Positions 34,365 through 62,146 of a stretch of DNA of 64,000 bases are shown here, one piece after another. The notes beneath the pieces were generated by a model. It ran no database searches. It was not told the origin of the DNA and saw nothing but the letters and a program-made list of their open reading frames with translations. Source of the stretch: a phage; sequence record PZ386965.1; one strand, given 5' to 3'. The translations under genes were made by a program, and so were the position numbers. Every line of letters begins with the position of its first letter. The stretch's first letter is position 1.

Positions 34365-34372
34365 TATTTATA
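34365..34372 (-). promoter_or_regulatory. late promoter upstream of rIII
   Basis: TATAAATA on the minus strand between gene 31 and rIII. Confidence 0.5.
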
Positions 34373-34705
34373 TCACTTATAAAGACACGGAATAGCTTTA
34401 TAGTGGCATGTTACGAATTTCTGTTTAATTTCTTTAGGTTGTTTAAGTCCCAAAGCCACAAATGGATGTGGAACATTTCGAATTTGTCCAACTGGTAGTG
34501 AAGTCAAATCACCGACTTCAACAAAACCTTCAGGAACATCAGGACCTACAGAATGAACTACACATAGTTCAGGAACTTCACCTTGAACACGTTTACCAAT
34601 CACAAGTCCTGATTCGGTAACTTCTTCATCACCTGCTTGAGCGGGTTCAGAAACCAGAATGACATATTCACCAACAGCACGAATTGGGAGTTGTACTTCA
34701 GACAT
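34373..34705 (-). CDS. 31: gp31 co-chaperonin (GroES-like)
   Basis: 110 aa, T4 gp31 size and position. Confidence 0.9.
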
Positions 34706-35060: not shown

Positions 35061-35642
35061 TTATTCACCACAAAAGTTTCGGATTTGTTCCCAATTCAGA
35101 GAACGAAGATTATTACGAGAGTACTGAATTACTTCAATACCGGCTTGTTTTAGAATGTCTGCCCAATTTTCAGGAGATCTGTCATATAATTCTGCATATA
35201 CAACCTTTTTAATACCTGACTGTGTAATAGCTTTAGTGCAATCAGGACATGGAGAAAGCGTCGTATACAACGTAGCACCTTCAATAGAATTACCTTTACG
35301 AGCTGCAAACAAAATTGCATTCAATTCCGCATGGATTTCATTATTAGCAGACCATGCACTATGAGCGGCCCGATGTTCTTTAGCCAAAACAAAATTATCC
35401 ACCCGTCCAAATGCTGTAGTGCCTTCTTTATGCCCAGCAACGATGACCGGGCTTGGTTTATTCTTCAACCAACCGTTTTCGGATGCATGTTCGCAACAGT
35501 TTGTACCACCTGAAGGAGAGCCATTATAACCTGTAGAAATAATGCGTCCATCTTTTTCAATGACGGCACCAACTTTCCATGAACAACATTTTGATTCTTG
35601 AGAAATCAGATAAGCAATCTGAAGATATGTGCTAGCTTTCAT
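35061..35642 (-). CDS. cd: dCMP deaminase
   Basis: 193 aa, same as T4 Cd; HAE and PCxxC zinc-binding deaminase motifs. Confidence 0.93.
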   Translation of the reverse strand: MKASTYLQIAYLISQESKCCSWKVGAVIEKDGRIISTGYNGSPSGGTNCCEHASENGWLKNKPSPVIVAGHKEGTTAFGRVDNFVLAKEHRAAHSAWSANNEIHAELNAILFAARKGNSIEGATLYTTLSPCPDCTKAITQSGIKKVVYAELYDRSPENWADILKQAGIEVIQYSRNNLRSLNWEQIRNFCGE

Positions 35643-36634
35643 TATTGAACCTTATTAATATGAGTTAACAGCTCTTTAGTTTGTTCCCAACTGATGCACG
35701 CATCGGTAACGGAAACGCCATAGGACATATTATCAGAAATTTTTTGATTTCCTTCATGTAGGAATGATTCTATCATAATTCCTTTGACCAAATCATTAGC
35801 TGCTAAATTTTTACCAATACCAATTTGATTGCTATAATGCCCAGCAGCGTTTGCATGGCTACAGTCAACCATTACATAATGATTCAGACCTACGGCCCTT
35901 GCTTTGTTAGAAGCTTCTTGAATATCAGAAGAATGATAGTTCGGGCCATTGGTCCCGCCACGCAATACGATATGCGTATTCTGATTACCTTCAGCTTCAA
36001 CAATGCCTACAGTACCATCGACGTCCATACCCATATACCGATGAGGCCAGGCGGCACTATACATCGCGTCTGTAGCTACTTTAATAGAACCATTGGTTGC
36101 GTTCTTGAAGCCTACGCACATCGGTAGACCTGAAGCAATTTCACGATGTGTCTGACTTTCAGTCGTACGGGCGCCAATAGCAACCCATGAGAAAATACCA
36201 GAAAGATACTTAATCGTGAATGGGTCTAATACTTCAGTTGCTAATGGAAGTCCCATACGTAGAAGTTTACGACACAATGTTCGTGCAACTATAAGACCGT
36301 GGTTCATATCAAAACTTCCGTCAAGATATGGATCATTTACAAGACCTTTCCAACCTACGGTAGTTCGAGGCTTTTCAAAATAAACGCGCATCACTAACAG
36401 AACATTAGGAAGACGAGTTTGAAGTTCAGCCAGACGTTTGCCGTATTCAACAGCAGCAATAGGGTCATGAATTGAACAAGGACCTACAACAATAAGTTTG
36501 CGTGGGTCTTCACCATTCATAATCGAATTAACTTGTTCGCGATGAGAAGCCACTTGTGATGCGTAAGCTTCCGACAAAGGAATAATCTCAGCCAGTTCTT
36601 TTGGAGAAATAAGTTTTCCGACGACAGGTAACAT
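35642..36634 (-). CDS. 3-deoxy-D-arabino-heptulosonate-7-phosphate (DAHP) synthase, AroG/AroF-type
   Basis: 330 aa; LIVVGPCSIHD, RVYFEKPRTTVGWKGL and WVAIGARTTESQ blocks align with E. coli AroG; N-terminus about 8 residues shorter than AroG; not present in T4. Confidence 0.85.
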   Translation of the reverse strand: MLPVVGKLISPKELAEIIPLSEAYASQVASHREQVNSIMNGEDPRKLIVVGPCSIHDPIAAVEYGKRLAELQTRLPNVLLVMRVYFEKPRTTVGWKGLVNDPYLDGSFDMNHGLIVARTLCRKLLRMGLPLATEVLDPFTIKYLSGIFSWVAIGARTTESQTHREIASGLPMCVGFKNATNGSIKVATDAMYSAAWPHRYMGMDVDGTVGIVEAEGNQNTHIVLRGGTNGPNYHSSDIQEASNKARAVGLNHYVMVDCSHANAAGHYSNQIGIGKNLAANDLVKGIMIESFLHEGNQKISDNMSYGVSVTDACISWEQTKELLTHINKVQ

Positions 36635-37335: not shown

Positions 37336-37560
37336 TCAGTGTACAGTATTTACTTTAACTCGAACAACAAATCGCTCGGTCGGTTCACCTACAGGAACAA
37401 ACTCTACATGATATTCGCCTTTGTAACGAGTATTCAGATCATTACGAATTCCTGCGAGTTTGTTGATTAATGTAGGACTCATATTAAGTCCCACTAGTTT
37501 ACGAAGCATTTTGTATGCTTCATCTTCGATTTCATGATGTTTATCGTACATAGTTTTCAT
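37336..37560 (-). CDS. hypothetical protein (74 aa)
   Basis: ATG start. Confidence 0.5.
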   Translation of the reverse strand: MKTMYDKHHEIEDEAYKMLRKLVGLNMSPTLINKLAGIRNDLNTRYKGEYHVEFVPVGEPTERFVVRVKVNTVH

Positions 37561-37731
37561 TTAACCATTCAATTGCCTGGTCGACGTTATCAAATATACC
37601 GCCGTCCAACCATTCTTCATGTTCATAGTCCAGCACATCAATACCGAACCGTCCATTTACTAAAGGCCATACTACAAACAAATATTCTTTATGCCGTTCA
37701 ATGGCCTCGATCACTTCGTATAATCGTTTCA

Positions 37732-37732
<1 letters not shown>
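37541..37732 (-). CDS. hypothetical protein (63 aa)
   Basis: ATG start, directly downstream of pseT. Confidence 0.5.
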
Positions 37733-38818
<1,086 letters not shown>

Positions 38819-38819
<1 letters not shown>

Positions 38820-39118
38820 TATTTTATTCCTAAGAAAATTTCAAGAATACGAATGTTATGCTCGCGCCGGTCTTTATTAATTTCAGCAACGTTTTTATTA
38901 ATTGACGTACTTCTAACGTTTGAAGAAATAAATTTAATCATATGACTTTTGAGTTGTTGCAAATCCAACCCTTTTTCTTTAGCAGCTTTACGAAGAGCTT
39001 TACCTGCTTCATCTAGTGCCTTTGCTGCATCTTTGTCATAATTGCCAAGTGACATTCCACGACAGATATCAATATACTCATCAGACCGTTTGATGTAATT
39101 CTCTAGTAATGTTTTCAT
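38819..39118 (-). CDS. hypothetical protein (99 aa)
   Basis: ATG start; early promoter upstream. Confidence 0.55.
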
Positions 39119-39146
39119 TTAGATTTCCTCAATTATCCATAGGAGC

Positions 39147-39176
39147 ATTATACTCTGCTCCCGAGAGTTTGTAAAC
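39147..39176 (-). promoter_or_regulatory. T4-type early promoter
   Basis: GTTTAC, 18-nt spacer, TATAAT. Confidence 0.5.
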
Positions 39177-39400
39177 TATTTTACTAAAGATTCGATATAC
39201 TCATGAAGAGCTTTAGTCGCTACTGCCCACTTGTTCTGATATTCATTTTTCAGATTAGCACGAGACTGAACTAACAAGCGGTCATTAGTCGGAGGCAAAG
39301 ATTCTAATCGTTGAATCTGGCGCCCATAAATCATAGCCGCCATTTCAGATTCATAGATAAGCCCTTTAATGTATTCGTGCTGTTCTTTAGTCATTGGCAT
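39176..39400 (-). CDS. hypothetical protein (74 aa)
   Basis: ATG start. Confidence 0.5.
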   Translation of the reverse strand: MPMTKEQHEYIKGLIYESEMAAMIYGRQIQRLESLPPTNDRLLVQSRANLKNEYQNKWAVATKALHEYIESLVK

Positions 39401-39681
39401 TTTTCCTCTTTTAAACCACTACGATAATAACATAACATAGTCTTCTGGTCATGTACATATCTTTTTAAGTCGTTTAACCAGATACGAAATTCTTGAGAGT
39501 CTTCAAATGGCATTCCAACCCATGGATTACCATCAATAACCTTTACTTGCCATTTCTGGTTATATTCAATAATAGATTCAGGCCATGGTGGATGTAAAGT
39601 TTCTTTAGGGCTTAAGGGCACATCCTGGGCACATCCAGCCAAAATGCCAATAGATAATACAACTGCGGTTAATTTAATCAT
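39391..39681 (-). CDS. predicted lipoprotein (96 aa)
   Basis: N-terminal signal peptide with LAGC lipobox. Confidence 0.6.
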   Translation of the reverse strand: MIKLTAVVLSIGILAGCAQDVPLSPKETLHPPWPESIIEYNQKWQVKVIDGNPWVGMPFEDSQEFRIWLNDLKRYVHDQKTMLCYYRSGLKEEKCQ

Positions 39682-40034
39682 TCTGAGAGCTTCCTGAGGT
39701 CTTCTGCAAAGGAATCGAAGGACCTGTTGATTTGTTTTTCGACCAATCCTGGCTTACTTGCCACCACGTTCTTCTTCTTCGAATCCTTACGGAGCTTTTC
39801 ATTTTCGGCCTTAAGTTGGTCAACTAAAACACGGTTCTTATAAGTCATTTCTTCGATTGACTGATATTGAATCTTGAAGTCGTCTAATACTTTAGCATTG
39901 TTTTTAGCAGTCTCTTTAACAGAAGCCAATTCAGTATTCAGCGAATCGACTTTATGGTTCAGAAATGCTATTGTTACAGTAGCAACAACCGCAAAAGCTG
40001 CCACTACAATATATGATGCATTTACTTTAAGCAT
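39678..40034 (-). CDS. predicted membrane-anchored coiled-coil protein (118 aa)
   Basis: N-terminal hydrophobic helix followed by a charged coiled-coil region. Confidence 0.55.
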   Translation of the reverse strand: MLKVNASYIVVAAFAVVATVTIAFLNHKVDSLNTELASVKETAKNNAKVLDDFKIQYQSIEEMTYKNRVLVDQLKAENEKLRKDSKKKNVVASKPGLVEKQINRSFDSFAEDLRKLSE

Positions 40035-40522
40035 GTTTGAATAATCTCAATGATTTCGTCTCGGGATAATCCATTGATAAGAACTGTTTTAGGCCCATCA
40101 GTTTGGATTTTGTAGGTCTCAAACATTACACACAACTCTTCTGCTGTATGATATGGACTTGAGATTCCGAGACGGTTGAATTTGTCGGTAAGAGGGTCGC
40201 AAATGATGTAGAATTTTATACCTGCGATATGTACGTTGGGTTGACTAATATTAACGAACACATTAGCGTCATATTTAGTCAAATTGTTTTGAAGAAATTC
40301 TACCATAGCATTAACTGCTTCCGGCATTGCTTCGCGTTTCTCTTCAGCGTATCGGGTGGAATATTCCTTTTGCTTTAACTTCTTTTTAGCATTTTTCGCT
40401 AGAGTAGTACGAAGGTCCGTAAGATAACCAACTGGACGGCCTTTCTTAAAGACTCGGATTCCATCTGTAGAATCACCAAATGCTGCCACAACCATATCGT
40501 TAGTAATCAATTGCATATTCAT
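40022..40522 (-). CDS. alc: Alc (transcription terminator on dC-DNA) candidate
   Basis: 166 aa; size and position match T4 alc next to rnlA; early promoter upstream. Confidence 0.7.
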   Translation of the reverse strand: MNMQLITNDMVVAAFGDSTDGIRVFKKGRPVGYLTDLRTTLAKNAKKKLKQKEYSTRYAEEKREAMPEAVNAMVEFLQNNLTKYDANVFVNISQPNVHIAGIKFYIICDPLTDKFNRLGISSPYHTAEELCVMFETYKIQTDGPKTVLINGLSRDEIIEIIQTCLK

Positions 40523-40543
40523 AATTTTCTCCTCGTGTTGTTG

Positions 40544-40572
40544 ATAAAAACCATAGTAACACCATCCTTGGT
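40544..40572 (-). promoter_or_regulatory. T4-type early promoter upstream of alc
   Basis: GTTTAC, 17-nt spacer, TACTAT. Confidence 0.6.
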
Positions 40573-40584
40573 GTTTGTAAACCG

Positions 40585-41718
<1,134 letters not shown>

Positions 41719-41735
41719 TCAGTTAGTTTTTTTAA

Positions 41736-41765
41736 ATTGTACCACAATCCTTGTGGTATGTAAAC
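41736..41765 (-). promoter_or_regulatory. T4-type early promoter upstream of rnlA
   Basis: GTTTAC, 18-nt spacer, TACAAT. Confidence 0.5.
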
Positions 41766-42175
41766 TACTTTTTCTTATGTTGGATATTCCAAGGCGGGTT
41801 GAACTTTTTGATAAAAAGTGGTTCTTCAAGGTCCATTGTTGCGATGGTCATTGAACCAAGTTCGTTGGTGACTGAAAGGTCAAAACATTGGCGGGCCCAG
41901 AATTCAACCTTTTTGCCTTGCATTAAGGCATCCAAAATCATAAGTGATTTTCTTGAATCTGAAGTCTGGTCTTTTCGATTTATGGCTGTTCGATAATAGT
42001 TAATGCGTTTCTTTAAATTCTTGGTTTTACCAATATATACAAGTTCGTCATCTATAGCAATAGCGTATATGACATTTTTCTTATTAGGGACATCAACTGT
42101 TTTAATTGTTGCATCTTCTAATAGCTCCAATTCTGTATATTTAATAAAGGAATATTCGGCGGCAATATCTTTCAT
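41765..42175 (-). CDS. denA: endonuclease II
   Basis: 136 aa, same size as T4 EndoII; GIY-YIG-like core. Confidence 0.88.
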   Translation of the reverse strand: MKDIAAEYSFIKYTELELLEDATIKTVDVPNKKNVIYAIAIDDELVYIGKTKNLKKRINYYRTAINRKDQTSDSRKSLMILDALMQGKKVEFWARQCFDLSVTNELGSMTIATMDLEEPLFIKKFNPPWNIQHKKK

Positions 42176-42199
42176 AATAAAGTGGGACCGAAGTCCCGT
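42176..42199 (-). terminator. terminator between nrdB and denA
   Basis: GGGAC-UUCG-GUCCC hairpin on the minus transcript. Confidence 0.6.
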
Positions 42200-42201
42200 C
42201 C

Positions 42202-43380
42202 TTAGAAATATTTTTTGTATGAATTGATTACATTTTGGTCTACATCATTATCAATTTGTGCGACAAGATAAGAACTGATTTCAACTTCCTGAGGAGCTGC
42301 TTGAACTAAATCGGAGTTCAGATATTCACGAATCCAAGGATACGGATGCTTGGTCGGAGCATTAGTGATTGGGCATGGCAAACCACACTGCTTCATACGA
42401 GACACAGTCAAGTAATCAACAAAAGCACACATACTCTGCGTATTGATACCTGGACATGTACCGTCTTTAAAGAGGTGTGCAGCCCATTCCTTCTCTTGTC
42501 TATTTACTTCCATAAAAATATCAACTGCTTCTTGTTCACATTCTTTAGCAATTTGAACCCACTCATCACCATCAGTACCAGATTGAAGTTGACGGATAAT
42601 GTACTGAGTACCCTTGAGGTGGAGTTGCTCGTCACGAGCAATGAACTTCATAATCTTTGCATTACCTTCCATAATTTCCATATTTTTATGGAAGTTGAAA
42701 GTACATGCAAATGATACGTAAAAACGAATAGCTTCCAAGGCGTTGATAACATGCAAACAGAGATAAAGAGACTTCATTAGGTCATGTTTACATTCTTCCA
42801 TGTGCATAAGACTATTTGAATATGCATCTAAATCATATTCATTTTCAGAAAAACATTTAAAAATTTCTTTAGCATTTTCCCATTCACGGGTTTTAATCAG
42901 AACGTCATCATAATAACGTCCAATGGATTCAGCGCGTTTCATAATAGCTTCATCTAATACAATTTCATCAAATACCTTCGATGGATCGGTATAAAGATTT
43001 CGCATAATATGAGTATACGAACGAGAGTGAATAGTTTCACTGAATGTCCATGTTGCGACCCATGTATCTAATGAAGGGTCAGAAATCAGTGCCATAAGTA
43101 CCGCAGATGGGGCCCTGCCTTGGATAGAATCTAATAATGATTGATACTTAAGATTGTTTGTAAAGATGTCCTGTTGGAACTGAGGAAGCTTATTGAACTG
43201 CGCAGAGTCCAACATCAAGTTTACCTCTTCTGGGCGCCAGAAAAACGACAATTGCTTTTCAATAAGTTCTTCAAAAACTTTATGACGCTGAATATCATAC
43301 CGTGCGAGGCCAAGACCAGAACCAAAGAACATCGGTTCATTCAAAACATCGACTTGTTGCGTGTTAAAAACTGTACTCAT
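42202..43380 (-). CDS. nrdB: ribonucleotide reductase small subunit
   Basis: 392 aa, continuous ORF with no intron. Confidence 0.93.
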   Translation of the reverse strand: MSTVFNTQQVDVLNEPMFFGSGLGLARYDIQRHKVFEELIEKQLSFFWRPEEVNLMLDSAQFNKLPQFQQDIFTNNLKYQSLLDSIQGRAPSAVLMALISDPSLDTWVATWTFSETIHSRSYTHIMRNLYTDPSKVFDEIVLDEAIMKRAESIGRYYDDVLIKTREWENAKEIFKCFSENEYDLDAYSNSLMHMEECKHDLMKSLYLCLHVINALEAIRFYVSFACTFNFHKNMEIMEGNAKIMKFIARDEQLHLKGTQYIIRQLQSGTDGDEWVQIAKECEQEAVDIFMEVNRQEKEWAAHLFKDGTCPGINTQSMCAFVDYLTVSRMKQCGLPCPITNAPTKHPYPWIREYLNSDLVQAAPQEVEISSYLVAQIDNDVDQNVINSYKKYF

Positions 43381-43434
43381 TATATTTTCTCACTTAGTTA
43401 TAACTCATCCATGAGTAAATTATAATCAAAAGTC

Positions 43435-45690
43435 TTAAAGCTTACAAGCAGAACAATCTTCAGCTTTAGGTGTTTCTAATTCATAGTCATCTGTACCTGA
43501 CCCATCACGAGTGTTATGATAGTAGAGATTTTTTCCGCCAAAGTACCAGAAGTAAAGCAGATCGTCAAGCATTACCGACATTGGCACTTTACCTTTCTCA
43601 AATACTGCAGGGTCATAGTAAGTATTAGCAGAAGCAGACTGGCACACCCATTTCAACATGATAGCAACTTGGGTCAAATAAGGTTTATTACCTTTCTTAG
43701 CAAGTTTCCACGCATAGTCGTAAAGACTCATGTTATGTTCGATATTAGGAACAACCTGTCGGAAGTTGCCTTCTTTAGATTCTTTAATACTTACTGGGCC
43801 GCGTGGTGGCTCAATCCCGTTTGTAGAGTTAGATACTTGACTGCTTGACTCACAAGGCATGAGTGCAGACAACGTTGAGTTACGAATTCCGTGTTCTTTG
43901 AGTTCAGCTCGAAGTTCTTCCCAGTCACAGACGTAGTTCGGGGCTGCGATTTGGTCAATCTTTTTATTGTACCAGTCGATAGGTAATTCGCCTCTAGACC
44001 ATTTAGTGTCTGAATAATACTCACAAGGTCCTTTTTCTTTGGCGAGTTTGATTGAAGCTTTGATAAGGCCATATTGCAATCTCTCAAACAATTCATGAGT
44101 CAAATCGTTAGCGTCTTCATATGAAGCAAAGTTAGAAGCTAACCATGCAGCATAGTTCGTAACACCAACACCGAGATTTCGACGTTTTTTAGCTTTTAAA
44201 GCTTCTGGAACCGGATAATCTTGATAGTCTAACAGGTTATCAAGTGCACGTACTTGTACTTCAGCAAGTTCATTAATTTTATCTTGGTCTTGCCAATCAA
44301 ATTTATCAAGAACAAAAGCGGATAACGTGCATAAACCAATTTCAGCATCATGGCCATTCACATCATTAGTTGGAATAGCGATTTCACAACATAAGTTACT
44401 CTGACGAATTGGAGCTTTTTCACGAATAAACGGAGTGTAGTTATTCGTGTTATCAACAAACTGTGGATAAATTCGAGCAGTACCAGAACGTTCAGTCATG
44501 AACAATTCAAAGAGTTCTAATGCTTTGATTCTTTTCTTTCTGATTGTTGGGTCTTTTTCAGCTTTCTCATAAAGCTCACGGAATTTATCTTGATCTTCAA
44601 AGAACGAGTAATATAGTTCGCCTGACATTTCGTGAGGGCTAAATAAAGTAATATAATCATTTTTACCAAGGCGTTCCATCATGAGGTCATTAATCTGAAT
44701 TCCGTAGTCCATATGTCGAATACGGTTTTCATCCACGCCTTTGTTATTTTTCAGAACTAATAGGTTCTCTACTTCTAAGTGCCACATCGGATAATACGCT
44801 GTAGCAGCACCACCACGAATACCACCTTGAGAACAAGATTTTACTGCAGTTTGGAAATGTTTCCAGAATGGAATAACACCTGTATGTCGAACTTCACCCA
44901 TACCGATCTTAGAACCTTCTGCACGAAGCATACCAACGTTGATACCGATACCAGCTCGTTTAGAAATATATTCAATAATTGATGCTGAAGTTTTGTTAAT
45001 AGATTTTAACGAATCACCGGCTTCAATAACTACACAACTAGAGAACTGGCGAGTTGGAGTACGAGCACCTGCCATAATTGGAGTAGGCAACGAAACTTGA
45101 TGAGTAGAAACGGCATCATAAAAACGAATAATATGTTTCAAACGGTCATGAGTTTCGTCTTGATGTAAGGCCATACCAATAGCCATGATAGCAAACTGGG
45201 GAGTTTCATAAATCTTACCAGTTGTTTTATCTTTAACCAAGTATTTTTCTTTAAGCTGCATAGCACCAGCATAAGTCAGGTCAAAATCTCGCTCGTGTTT
45301 AATCTGAGAATCAAGATAAATGATTTCTTCTGCAGAATATCTAGACAACAACTCGGGATCGTATTTGCCTTCATTAACACAATACGAGATATGGTCGATA
45401 AAAGCAGGAGGTTCAAACTGTCCATATACATCTTTACGAAGTGCAAACATTAATCCTTTAGCGGCGACATATTGATAATCAGGTTCTTCGACAGAAATCG
45501 AGTTAGCTGCAACTTTAATACAAATCTTCTGGATATCTTTGGTGCTCATCCCATCGACAAGATGGGTCTTAATTTCTTCATACAATTCATATGGGTCGAT
45601 TTGTGTTCCTTCACATTGCCAAGTTAAGACTTGAATAATTTTCTGTGCATCAAAATTTTGGGATACACCACTGCTCTTAGTTACTTGCAT
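43435..45690 (-). CDS. nrdA: ribonucleotide reductase large subunit
   Basis: Track ORF begins at TTG; internal ATG (MQVTKSSGVSQNF) matches the T4 NrdA N-terminus; about 751 aa. Confidence 0.93.
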   Translation of the reverse strand: MQVTKSSGVSQNFDAQKIIQVLTWQCEGTQIDPYELYEEIKTHLVDGMSTKDIQKICIKVAANSISVEEPDYQYVAAKGLMFALRKDVYGQFEPPAFIDHISYCVNEGKYDPELLSRYSAEEIIYLDSQIKHERDFDLTYAGAMQLKEKYLVKDKTTGKIYETPQFAIMAIGMALHQDETHDRLKHIIRFYDAVSTHQVSLPTPIMAGARTPTRQFSSCVVIEAGDSLKSINKTSASIIEYISKRAGIGINVGMLRAEGSKIGMGEVRHTGVIPFWKHFQTAVKSCSQGGIRGGAATAYYPMWHLEVENLLVLKNNKGVDENRIRHMDYGIQINDLMMERLGKNDYITLFSPHEMSGELYYSFFEDQDKFRELYEKAEKDPTIRKKRIKALELFELFMTERSGTARIYPQFVDNTNNYTPFIREKAPIRQSNLCCEIAIPTNDVNGHDAEIGLCTLSAFVLDKFDWQDQDKINELAEVQVRALDNLLDYQDYPVPEALKAKKRRNLGVGVTNYAAWLASNFASYEDANDLTHELFERLQYGLIKASIKLAKEKGPCEYYSDTKWSRGELPIDWYNKKIDQIAAPNYVCDWEELRAELKEHGIRNSTLSALMPCESSSQVSNSTNGIEPPRGPVSIKESKEGNFRQVVPNIEHNMSLYDYAWKLAKKGNKPYLTQVAIMLKWVCQSASANTYYDPAVFEKGKVPMSVMLDDLLYFWYFGGKNLYYHNTRDGSGTDDYELETPKAEDCSACKL

Positions 45691-60652: not shown

Positions 60653-61204
60653 ATGAAACTCTATCACTATTATTTTGACACTAAAGAATTTTACAAAGAA
60701 GAAAATTATAAACCATTAAAAGGCGTAGGATTTCCGGCTCATTCGACACCAAAAAAACCTTTAGACCCTAAAGAAGGCTATGCTGTTATATTTGACGAAC
60801 GCGAGCAAGAATGGGTATATGTTGAAGACCATCGCGGAAAAACAGTATGGACATATGATAAGCAAAAAATTGTTATTGACACTCCAGGTGCTCTTCAAAA
60901 TGTCACTACAGAAGAACCAGGTGAATTTGACCTTTGGACTGACGACGGGTGGAAGGAAGATGAAGCGTATAAGCGGGTAGTTCAACGTGATAAGAAAATT
61001 CATGAACTCTATAAATTATTCAGTGTTTTAAGTTCTCTTATTGATGCAGAGGTTGCTAATAGAGAAGAAAAACGAAAATTTAAAGAGCTCAAAAAATTCT
61101 TTGCCCTTTTAGAAAAACATGAACATCTTGGCGGCGAATTCCCTAAATTCCCTGACCTTGAAAACAAATCTATTATCAAAGCGATTATAAATATCTTTAA
61201 GTAA
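60653..61204 (+). CDS. 38: tail fiber assembly chaperone gp38 (T4-type)
   Basis: 183 aa; N-terminus near-identical to T4 gp38. Confidence 0.9.
   Translation: MKLYHYYFDTKEFYKEENYKPLKGVGFPAHSTPKKPLDPKEGYAVIFDEREQEWVYVEDHRGKTVWTYDKQKIVIDTPGALQNVTTEEPGEFDLWTDDGWKEDEAYKRVVQRDKKIHELYKLFSVLSSLIDAEVANREEKRKFKELKKFFALLEKHEHLGGEFPKFPDLENKSIIKAIINIFK
61186..61193 (+). promoter_or_regulatory. late promoter for holin t
   Basis: TATAAATA inside the 3-prime end of gene 38. Confidence 0.55.
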
Positions 61205-61873: not shown

Positions 61874-62146
61874 TTAGTTGTTAGAATACATCGCTAAATG
61901 ACGATAAATATTTTCAAAACCTTCATTGAATTCACTAATCAGTGTTTTCTTTTCTTCGGCAGTTAAATTTGTAATTAGTTTTCTGAACGAATTCTGATTT
62001 AGCTGCCGACCATCTTTTTTAATTCCAATCTCATTCAAGAATCCGATGAAACTTGCTCGGTCTTCAACAATATCTTCCCTAGAGAATTTAATCAAAATAG
62101 AAGCAATAGTAATAATTTCACGTACGATTTCAATGTCTTTATTCAT
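61874..62146 (-). CDS. asiA: AsiA anti-sigma-70
   Basis: 90 aa, near-identical to T4 AsiA. Confidence 0.95.
   Translation of the reverse strand: MNKDIEIVREIITIASILIKFSREDIVEDRASFIGFLNEIGIKKDGRQLNQNSFRKLITNLTAEEKKTLISEFNEGFENIYRHLAMYSNN

Follow-up and report, generated by a model that had tools for sequence, protein, structure and literature searches.

What would a phage do with two small envelope proteins, one a lipoprotein and the other held in the membrane by its N-terminus, that are encoded by overlapping genes? The question is raised by positions 39391-40034 in a stretch of 64,000 nucleotides of phage DNA (sequence record PZ386965.1, the whole stretch being termed the window in what follows), where a first-pass annotation had proposed superinfection exclusion, lysis modulation or an injection-related function. 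The answer is a classical one. The pair is almost certainly the two-component spanin of a T-even phage of the Mosigvirus type, and its function, by analogy with its counterparts in phage T4, would be outer-membrane disruption at lysis, rather than superinfection exclusion or injection. It was, in that sense, known already: this is an ordinary member of the T4 PseT.3/PseT.2 spanin family, annotated in close relatives.

It is useful to recall how a Gram-negative host is lysed. The holin first makes the inner membrane permeable, the endolysin then breaks down the peptidoglycan, and the spanin comes third and last by disrupting the outer membrane, which current evidence indicates that it does by fusing this membrane with the inner one; when the spanin is absent, cells end as spheres inside an intact outer membrane (PMC5295617; PMC6139136). 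The two-component class of spanins, in the sense of Summer 2007 and Kongari 2018, is the one that concerns us here, and the pair displays the attributes that go with it, namely the topology signal of an i-spanin, a lipoprotein signal, the gene arrangement and periplasmic cysteines that could form homotypic intermolecular disulphides. The coordinates of the features that we discuss are collected in the table.

The comparison with T4 pseT.1-pseT.3, which the first-pass annotation had suggested, is what gave the pair its identity. The 118-aa protein, which begins with MLKVNASYIVVAAFAVVATVTIAFLNHK, shares 49% of its residues with PseT.3 (E 9e-34), while for the 96-aa protein and PseT.2 the identity is 68% (E 2e-50; BLASTP against T4, NC_000866 in both cases). 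They are, as judged by sequence similarity, the orthologues of these proteins, the former being the i-spanin and the latter the o-spanin. Both match PHROGs profiles labelled 'Rz-like spanin' end to end and within the lysis category (i-spanin, phrog_739, E 5e-33; o-spanin, phrog_812, E 4.7e-42), and a second, weak match of the i-spanin, to phrog_214 (9e-07), bears the same label. Other collections were far less informative. The Pfam scan left the o-spanin without any match and gave the i-spanin only coiled-coil or DUF matches below threshold (the DUF5094 match scoring 23 bits, below the cut-off of 33), the Rz and Rz1 profiles of Pfam being matched by neither protein above the gathering score; an NCBIfam search returned nothing meaningful for either of them, and in a sequence search of the PDB the best E value was no lower than 0.3 for the i-spanin and the o-spanin alike.

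The architecture read by the first-pass annotation, that of a phage-encoded envelope pair, stands: it combines a helical protein anchored in the inner membrane with a lipoprotein, and the N-terminal transmembrane helix and long charged helix of the first, the LAGC lipobox of the second and the overlap of the two reading frames were all found again on the minus strand. The i-spanin is rich in charged residues (31%) and devoid of cysteine. Beyond its transmembrane segment, nine of the ten heptad a/d positions that fall between residues 28 and 60 are hydrophobic, and the AF2 model, computed from the single sequence (mean pLDDT 83, reaching 91-95 across residues 21-80), shows a helix from residue 6 to residue 88, a short break at NVVASKP and a further helix from 96 to 117. 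The orientation of the protein would be N-in/C-out. We compared the pair over ten genera, represented by the window, T4, Moonvirus, Jiaodavirus, Winklervirus, Roskildevirus, Pseudotevenvirus, Gaprivervirus, Karamvirus and Krischvirus. In every one of them the i-spanin lacks cysteine and possesses an N-terminal hydrophobic segment. Conservation culminates in the C-terminal motif KPxLVEKQINxSF, the columns K94, P95, L97, E99, K100, Q101, N103, S105 and F106 being invariant or nearly so across the alignment, and alpha2 may well be the region of contact with the o-spanin.

The o-spanin starts with MIKLTAVVLSIGILAGC, followed by AQD. We recognise there a basic n-region (K3), an uncharged and hydrophobic h-region, and a lipobox L-A-G-C that ends with Cys17, in keeping with the pattern [LVI][ASTVI][GAS]C that we used for o-spanins, together with a residue other than Asp at position +2, Asp meaning retention in the inner membrane. 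As this +2 residue is Ala, and not Asp, sorting to the outer membrane is expected; it is A, S or T in all ten genera, never Asp. The only invariant cysteines of the family, over the same genera, are that of the lipobox and two C-terminal ones, these two being spaced by 11 residues in nine genera out of ten. The AF2 model of the o-spanin, again built from a single sequence, is to be taken as indicative only (mean pLDDT 65): it has 26 disordered residues at the start, comprising the signal and a linker; these are followed by short helices and two strands, by a helix of 16 residues (63-78) and, with moderate confidence, by a terminal hairpin made of strands 84-87 and 92-95, each of which carries one of the cysteines. 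Searched with Foldseek, this model retrieved nothing from the PDB at E <= 0.001, and a single match from BFVD (E 7e-4), an unnamed viral protein of 94 aa with 43% identity, presumably a homologue, so that no informative relative in fold emerged. Whether by sequence or by fold, our PDB searches found a solved structure for neither spanin family.

It is worth asking how often such signals would arise by accident. Read in all six frames, the window contains 173 ORFs that reach 60 aa; one alone has a lipoprotein-type signal, and it is the o-spanin, against none in 30 shuffled windows; a strongly hydrophobic N-terminus is found in two, the i-spanin and a spurious ORF lying in another frame within a tail-fibre gene. 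The presence of the signal features of the pair exceeds chance.

The organisation of the genes is likewise that of the family. The i-spanin gene's stop codon and the start codon of the o-spanin gene overlap as ATGA, and the same type of overlap is seen in T4 and in the eight further genera examined; the two genes may be coupled at this place. Their architecture is nevertheless of the 'separated' kind, the criteria of PMC6139136 classifying even an overlap of 8 bp in this way. The pair and the genes that surround it are all on the minus strand, so that the first-pass statement that the pair is located upstream of alc holds in plus-strand coordinates only: as transcription runs, the pair lies directly downstream of this gene. 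The start of the i-spanin gene overlaps by 13 bp the end of alc (40022-40522; Pfam ALC, 1.2e-42), and the T4 order pseT–pseT.1–pseT.2–pseT.3–alc–rnlA–denA–nrdB is kept in the window, as it is in near-identical Mosigvirus genomes.

Features of the spanin pair, of its neighbourhood and of related lysis genes in the window
Feature	Position	Strand	Basis
i-spanin gene (pseT.3 orthologue by sequence; 118 aa, predicted type II inner-membrane protein)	39678..40034	-	BLASTP, phrog_739, collinear Mizar 'i-spanin'
i-spanin predicted transmembrane domain, residues 7-25 (SYIVVAAFAVVATVTIAFL)	39960..40016	-	top 19-residue Kyte-Doolittle segment, mean 2.36; helical in AF2
i-spanin predicted periplasmic helix alpha1, residues 26-88, coiled-coil propensity	39771..39959	-	AF2 helix, heptads; agrees with T4 PseT.3 alpha1 (PMC6139136)
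i-spanin predicted C-terminal helix alpha2, residues 96-117, preceded by linker NVVASKP	39684..39749	-	AF2
Overlap of i-spanin stop and o-spanin start, ATGA, 4 bp	39678..39681	-	sequence
o-spanin gene (pseT.2 orthologue by sequence; 96-aa precursor, predicted outer-membrane lipoprotein)	39391..39681	-	BLASTP, phrog_812, Mizar 'o-spanin'
o-spanin residues 1-17, lipoprotein signal peptide ending in the lipobox LAGC, Cys17 predicted to be lipidated	39631..39681	-	sequence; Cys17 invariant in 10 genera
o-spanin C-terminal Cys pair, C84 (39430-39432) and C95 (39397-39399)	39397..39432	-	aligned with T4 PseT.2 C87, C98
pseT	37732-38631	-	
pseT.1-like gene	39176-39400	-	
rnlA	40585-41709	-	
denA	41765-42175	-	
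nrdB, one uninterrupted 392-aa ORF	42202-43380	-	
Holin gene t, 219 aa	61214-61873	+	Pfam Phage_holin_T 1.1e-90; phrog_860 2.3e-102
rIII-like lysis-inhibition accessory gene, 82 aa	34000-34248	-	phrog_1457 3.8e-43

Several features of this region deserve to be recorded in their own right. Between pseT and the pseT.1-like gene lie two ORFs, both on the minus strand, 38628-38819 (63 aa, phrog_8683) and 38819-39118 (99 aa, phrog_2364); they belong to families of unknown function and are kept in Mosigvirus relatives, whereas in T4 pseT.1 comes directly after pseT. The nrdB gene of T4, unlike that of the window, is interrupted by a group I intron containing I-TevIII, and in LF82-41, the genome of which is near-identical, nrdA directly follows nrdB without the T4 genes nrdB.1 and mobE. 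On the other side of pseT, a gene at 35642-36634 on the minus strand codes for a DAHP synthase of 330 aa (Pfam DAHP_synth_1, 5.6e-75), annotated alike in Mizar and LF82-41. The shikimate pathway begins with this enzyme, and the gene, which resembles an auxiliary metabolic gene, adjoins an ORF (35061-35642) that the annotation of relatives gives as a dCMP deaminase.

The window belongs to a T-even phage of the Mosigvirus type: its DNA is 96.7% identical over 39100-40600 to that of Escherichia phage LF82-41, a Mosigvirus, and 151 phage records span 80% or more of the same segment. The names given to the pair in these relatives vary ('i-spanin / o-spanin', 'spanin Rz / outer membrane lipoprotein Rz1' or 'Rz-like spanin (x2)'), and in the collinear phage Mizar, where the labels are i-spanin and o-spanin, the notes of the record cite BLASTp matches to T4 PseT.3 and PseT.2. 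At the protein level, the o-spanin has matches in 1,320 phage records and the i-spanin in 1,098, with both genes present in more than 1,000. The hosts of the matching phages are Escherichia, Klebsiella, Shigella, Enterobacter, Yersinia, Salmonella, Citrobacter, Serratia, Erwinia and Aeromonas, the named phages among the matches being Straboviridae of enterobacteria and of Aeromonas.

Exploring relatives also brought to light some details of annotation. In Erwinia phage Vettismorki (PQ464591.1, locus 895-1194) the annotated start of the o-spanin is an internal ATG (934), which deprives the protein of most of its signal peptide; a GTG at 895, which overlaps the i-spanin stop by 4 bp, restores the full signal (VNLKALAVCLSIFMVGC), and the start codon, as the sequence reads, is probably misannotated. 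In Krischvirus LF73P4 (OZ035795.1, 709-1161) the frame of the o-spanin is open for about 40 codons ahead of the likely signal peptide (MFKKAHKNFQTAIIHVFAVPIVFALSSC), an extension that reaches an ATG overlapping the i-spanin stop and holds a second hydrophobic segment (WIGASIIILMVFSIFVIHW). In T4 itself (NC_000866, locus 1133-1432) codon 86 of pseT.2, just before the essential Cys87, is ambiguous, being given as X, 'Ile or Thr'; the o-spanin of the window has Leu at the corresponding place.

Why should such a pair act on the outer membrane? We attribute this role to it because a lambda Rz-am Rz1-am lysogen lyses again when it is given the T4 genes pseT.3 and pseT.2 (Kongari 2018, PMC6139136). 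In T4, PseT.3 consists of alpha1 and alpha2, with a very short linker between them and coiled-coil propensity in alpha1 only, while in PseT.2 a beta-alpha-beta domain comes after a flexible linker (PMC6139136); the secondary structure predicted by AF2 for both proteins of the window is consistent with this description. The likeness extends over the full length of the proteins (118 against 117 aa for the i-spanins, 96 against 99 aa for the o-spanins) and comprises gene order, the 4-bp overlap, the topology signals and the predicted secondary structure, as well as a Cys-free i-spanin facing an o-spanin that has the lipobox Cys17 and two C-terminal cysteines 11 residues apart. What differs is the ordinary divergence between genera, here Mosigvirus and Tequatrovirus: the linker of the o-spanin is 3 residues shorter, by deletion, and the i-spanin is divergent in the sequence of its transmembrane segment and of alpha1. 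The two additional small ORFs between pseT and pseT.1 are a further difference from T4, lying outside the pair.

The cysteine pattern '0 + 2', with none in the i-spanin and two in the o-spanin, is the commonest one (PMC6139136), and it is that of the window pair, with C84 and C95. In T4, lysis is lost when PseT.2 carries either C87S or C98S, and the disulphide-linked dimer of PseT.2 is seen only when PseT.3 is present, which suggests that, once the complex is formed, an intramolecular disulphide isomerises to give two intermolecular ones (PMC6139136).

The sequence features needed by the T4 mechanism are all present in the pair, and we may picture what would follow. The i-spanin would be anchored in the inner membrane by its N-terminal transmembrane helix, with its helical domain (the alpha1 coiled coil, a short hinge, then alpha2) extending into the periplasm. 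A rough estimate of its length, counting 1.5 Å for each of the approximately 63 periplasmic residues of alpha1, gives about 95 Å, to which alpha2 adds about 33 Å; with the linker and domain of the o-spanin contributing further length, the complex would be long enough to bridge the periplasm. As long as the peptidoglycan is intact, the complex would remain inactive. Once holin T had triggered and the endolysin had degraded the wall, the complexes would be free to oligomerise and to change conformation, drawing the inner and outer membranes together and fusing them, so that the last barrier to release would be gone. In the course of this process the C-terminal cysteines of the o-spanin would make an intramolecular disulphide first, then two intermolecular ones linking dimers, as in T4, and this would be needed for lysis. 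Orthology, topology signals, conserved cysteines and synteny come from the present analysis; complex formation, the requirement for disulphides and disruption of the outer membrane of the fusion type belong to the literature on T4 and lambda, and we infer by analogy that the same mechanism operates in the window phage.

The rest of the lysis machinery has to be accounted for as well. The holin gene t is 21 kb away from the pair, set between a gp38-like tail-fibre assembly gene (60653-61204) before it and an asiA-like anti-sigma gene (61874-62146, minus strand) after it. No endolysin gene was seen near the pair; holin T being in the window implies that the rest of a T4-type lysis system is there as well. 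The lysis genes in the window are dispersed, as in T4, and the absence of the three further ones from the vicinity of the pair is due only to the fact that lysis genes of the T4 type are scattered genome-wide.

The timing of expression is a related matter. Between 34372 and 49283 the minus strand is devoid of the T4 late-promoter motif TATAAATA, the nearest one upstream of the pair being some 9 kb off, and it follows that transcription is probably not 'late' in the way it is in lambda. In the region 37500-44000, neither sigma-70-like sites (26, against 21.8 +/- 5.1 in shuffles) nor terminator-like sites (7, against 4.1 +/- 1.8) were in excess. The pair is probably carried on early/middle transcripts of the alc-pseT block, and early expression would be compatible with a spanin function, because spanins stay inactive until the wall is degraded. 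As to the motif itself, an exact copy is present at 34365-34372 on the minus strand, about 120 bp upstream of the start of the rIII-like gene and just after a 110-aa ORF (34373-34705) named 'head morphogenesis protein' in a near-identical phage. Over the whole window there are 19 occurrences, compared with 7.4 +/- 2.7 expected, and 10 of these 19 are on the plus strand from 1.8 to 16 kb, a distribution suggestive of a late-gene block in that part. That the pair should have a second role besides its spanin function, as an early-made tether or stabiliser of the envelope during lysis inhibition or in the exclusion of superinfecting phages, seems to us highly unlikely.

Could exclusion be the primary function, as was first proposed? 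The lipoprotein would then block an outer-membrane receptor of the host, like Cor of phi80/N15 or Llp of T5, or else DNA injection would be prevented by the pair, in the way of T4 Imm and Sp; a small phage lipoprotein beside a membrane-anchored protein fits this general architecture, and a protection acting early would suit the lack of a canonical late promoter nearby. Architecture alone fits, however. The PHROG matches are all to spanin families, profiles for exclusion and defence families yielding no PHROG match at E <= 0.01 and 0 families in PADLOC for either protein. T4 has other genes, imm and sp, to which exclusion is assigned. The proteins of the window are, in addition, orthologues of PseT.3 and PseT.2, functional substitutes for lambda Rz/Rz1 (PMC6139136). 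Exclusion as the function of the pair is a very improbable explanation, and the injection-related role that had been entertained falls in the same way with the orthology to a T4 two-component spanin.

One might alternatively see the pair as modulators of the timing of lysis, antiholins or lysis-inhibition factors akin to T4 RI and RIII, instead of effectors of lysis. Envelope proteins would be natural candidates in a phage endowed with lysis inhibition, and the rIII-like gene is about 5 kb away; this homologue of rIII is a separate gene, however, and neither protein resembles the RI or RIII families. RI is not known to be a lipoprotein, and its action is exerted via the periplasmic domain of holin T. 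Furthermore, the T4 orthologues are needed for disruption of the outer membrane in a lambda background that is without any T4 holin, and indeed without any further T4 gene (PMC6139136). We consider a role in timing to be more improbable still, and the lysis modulation of the first-pass annotation should be retained for its first term alone: a spanin performs the last step of lysis and takes no part in its timing or modulation, nor in the exclusion of other phages (PMC6139136; PMC5295617). As for two unrelated small membrane proteins, neighbours by chance and forming no complex, the likelihood is practically nil, since their adjacency and 4-bp overlap are kept in ten of ten Straboviridae genera examined and the two genes go together in such a large number of phage records.

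With the two-component spanin as the preferred reading, it remains to situate the pair among other spanins. It shares with lambda Rz/Rz1 a functional class, that of a type II inner-membrane helical or coiled-coil protein matched with an outer-membrane lipoprotein. The differences are many: the genes are separated, whereas those of lambda are embedded; the o-spanin is larger and predicted to be folded (strand/helix/strand), whereas Rz1 is a short, unstructured, proline-rich peptide; the i-spanin, unlike Rz, is coiled-coil-like in alpha1 only; and disulphides of the T4 type are confined to the o-spanin, both cysteines being required (PMC6139136; PMC5295617). The relation to lambda is one of functional analogy, with at most a remote similarity between the i-spanins. 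The unimolecular spanin of T1, gp11, is alike in its end function, disruption of the outer membrane, and in its N-terminal lipoprotein signal; it combines on one chain a lipobox and, at the C-terminus, a transmembrane domain, whereas the anchors of the window pair are on two proteins.

The main value of this work is thus one of correct annotation: the pair is a characterised spanin of the T4 type, usually annotated, and found in more than 1,000 T-even-like phages. There is, nevertheless, a more general point. Because membrane fusion has been established mainly for lambda Rz/Rz1, the o-spanin of which is unlike the folded domain of the PseT.2 type, the details of fusion may differ here. By which route a folded o-spanin such as PseT.2, as compared with the unstructured Rz1 of lambda, would lead to outer-membrane disruption is a question for the family as a whole, rather than for this particular locus.
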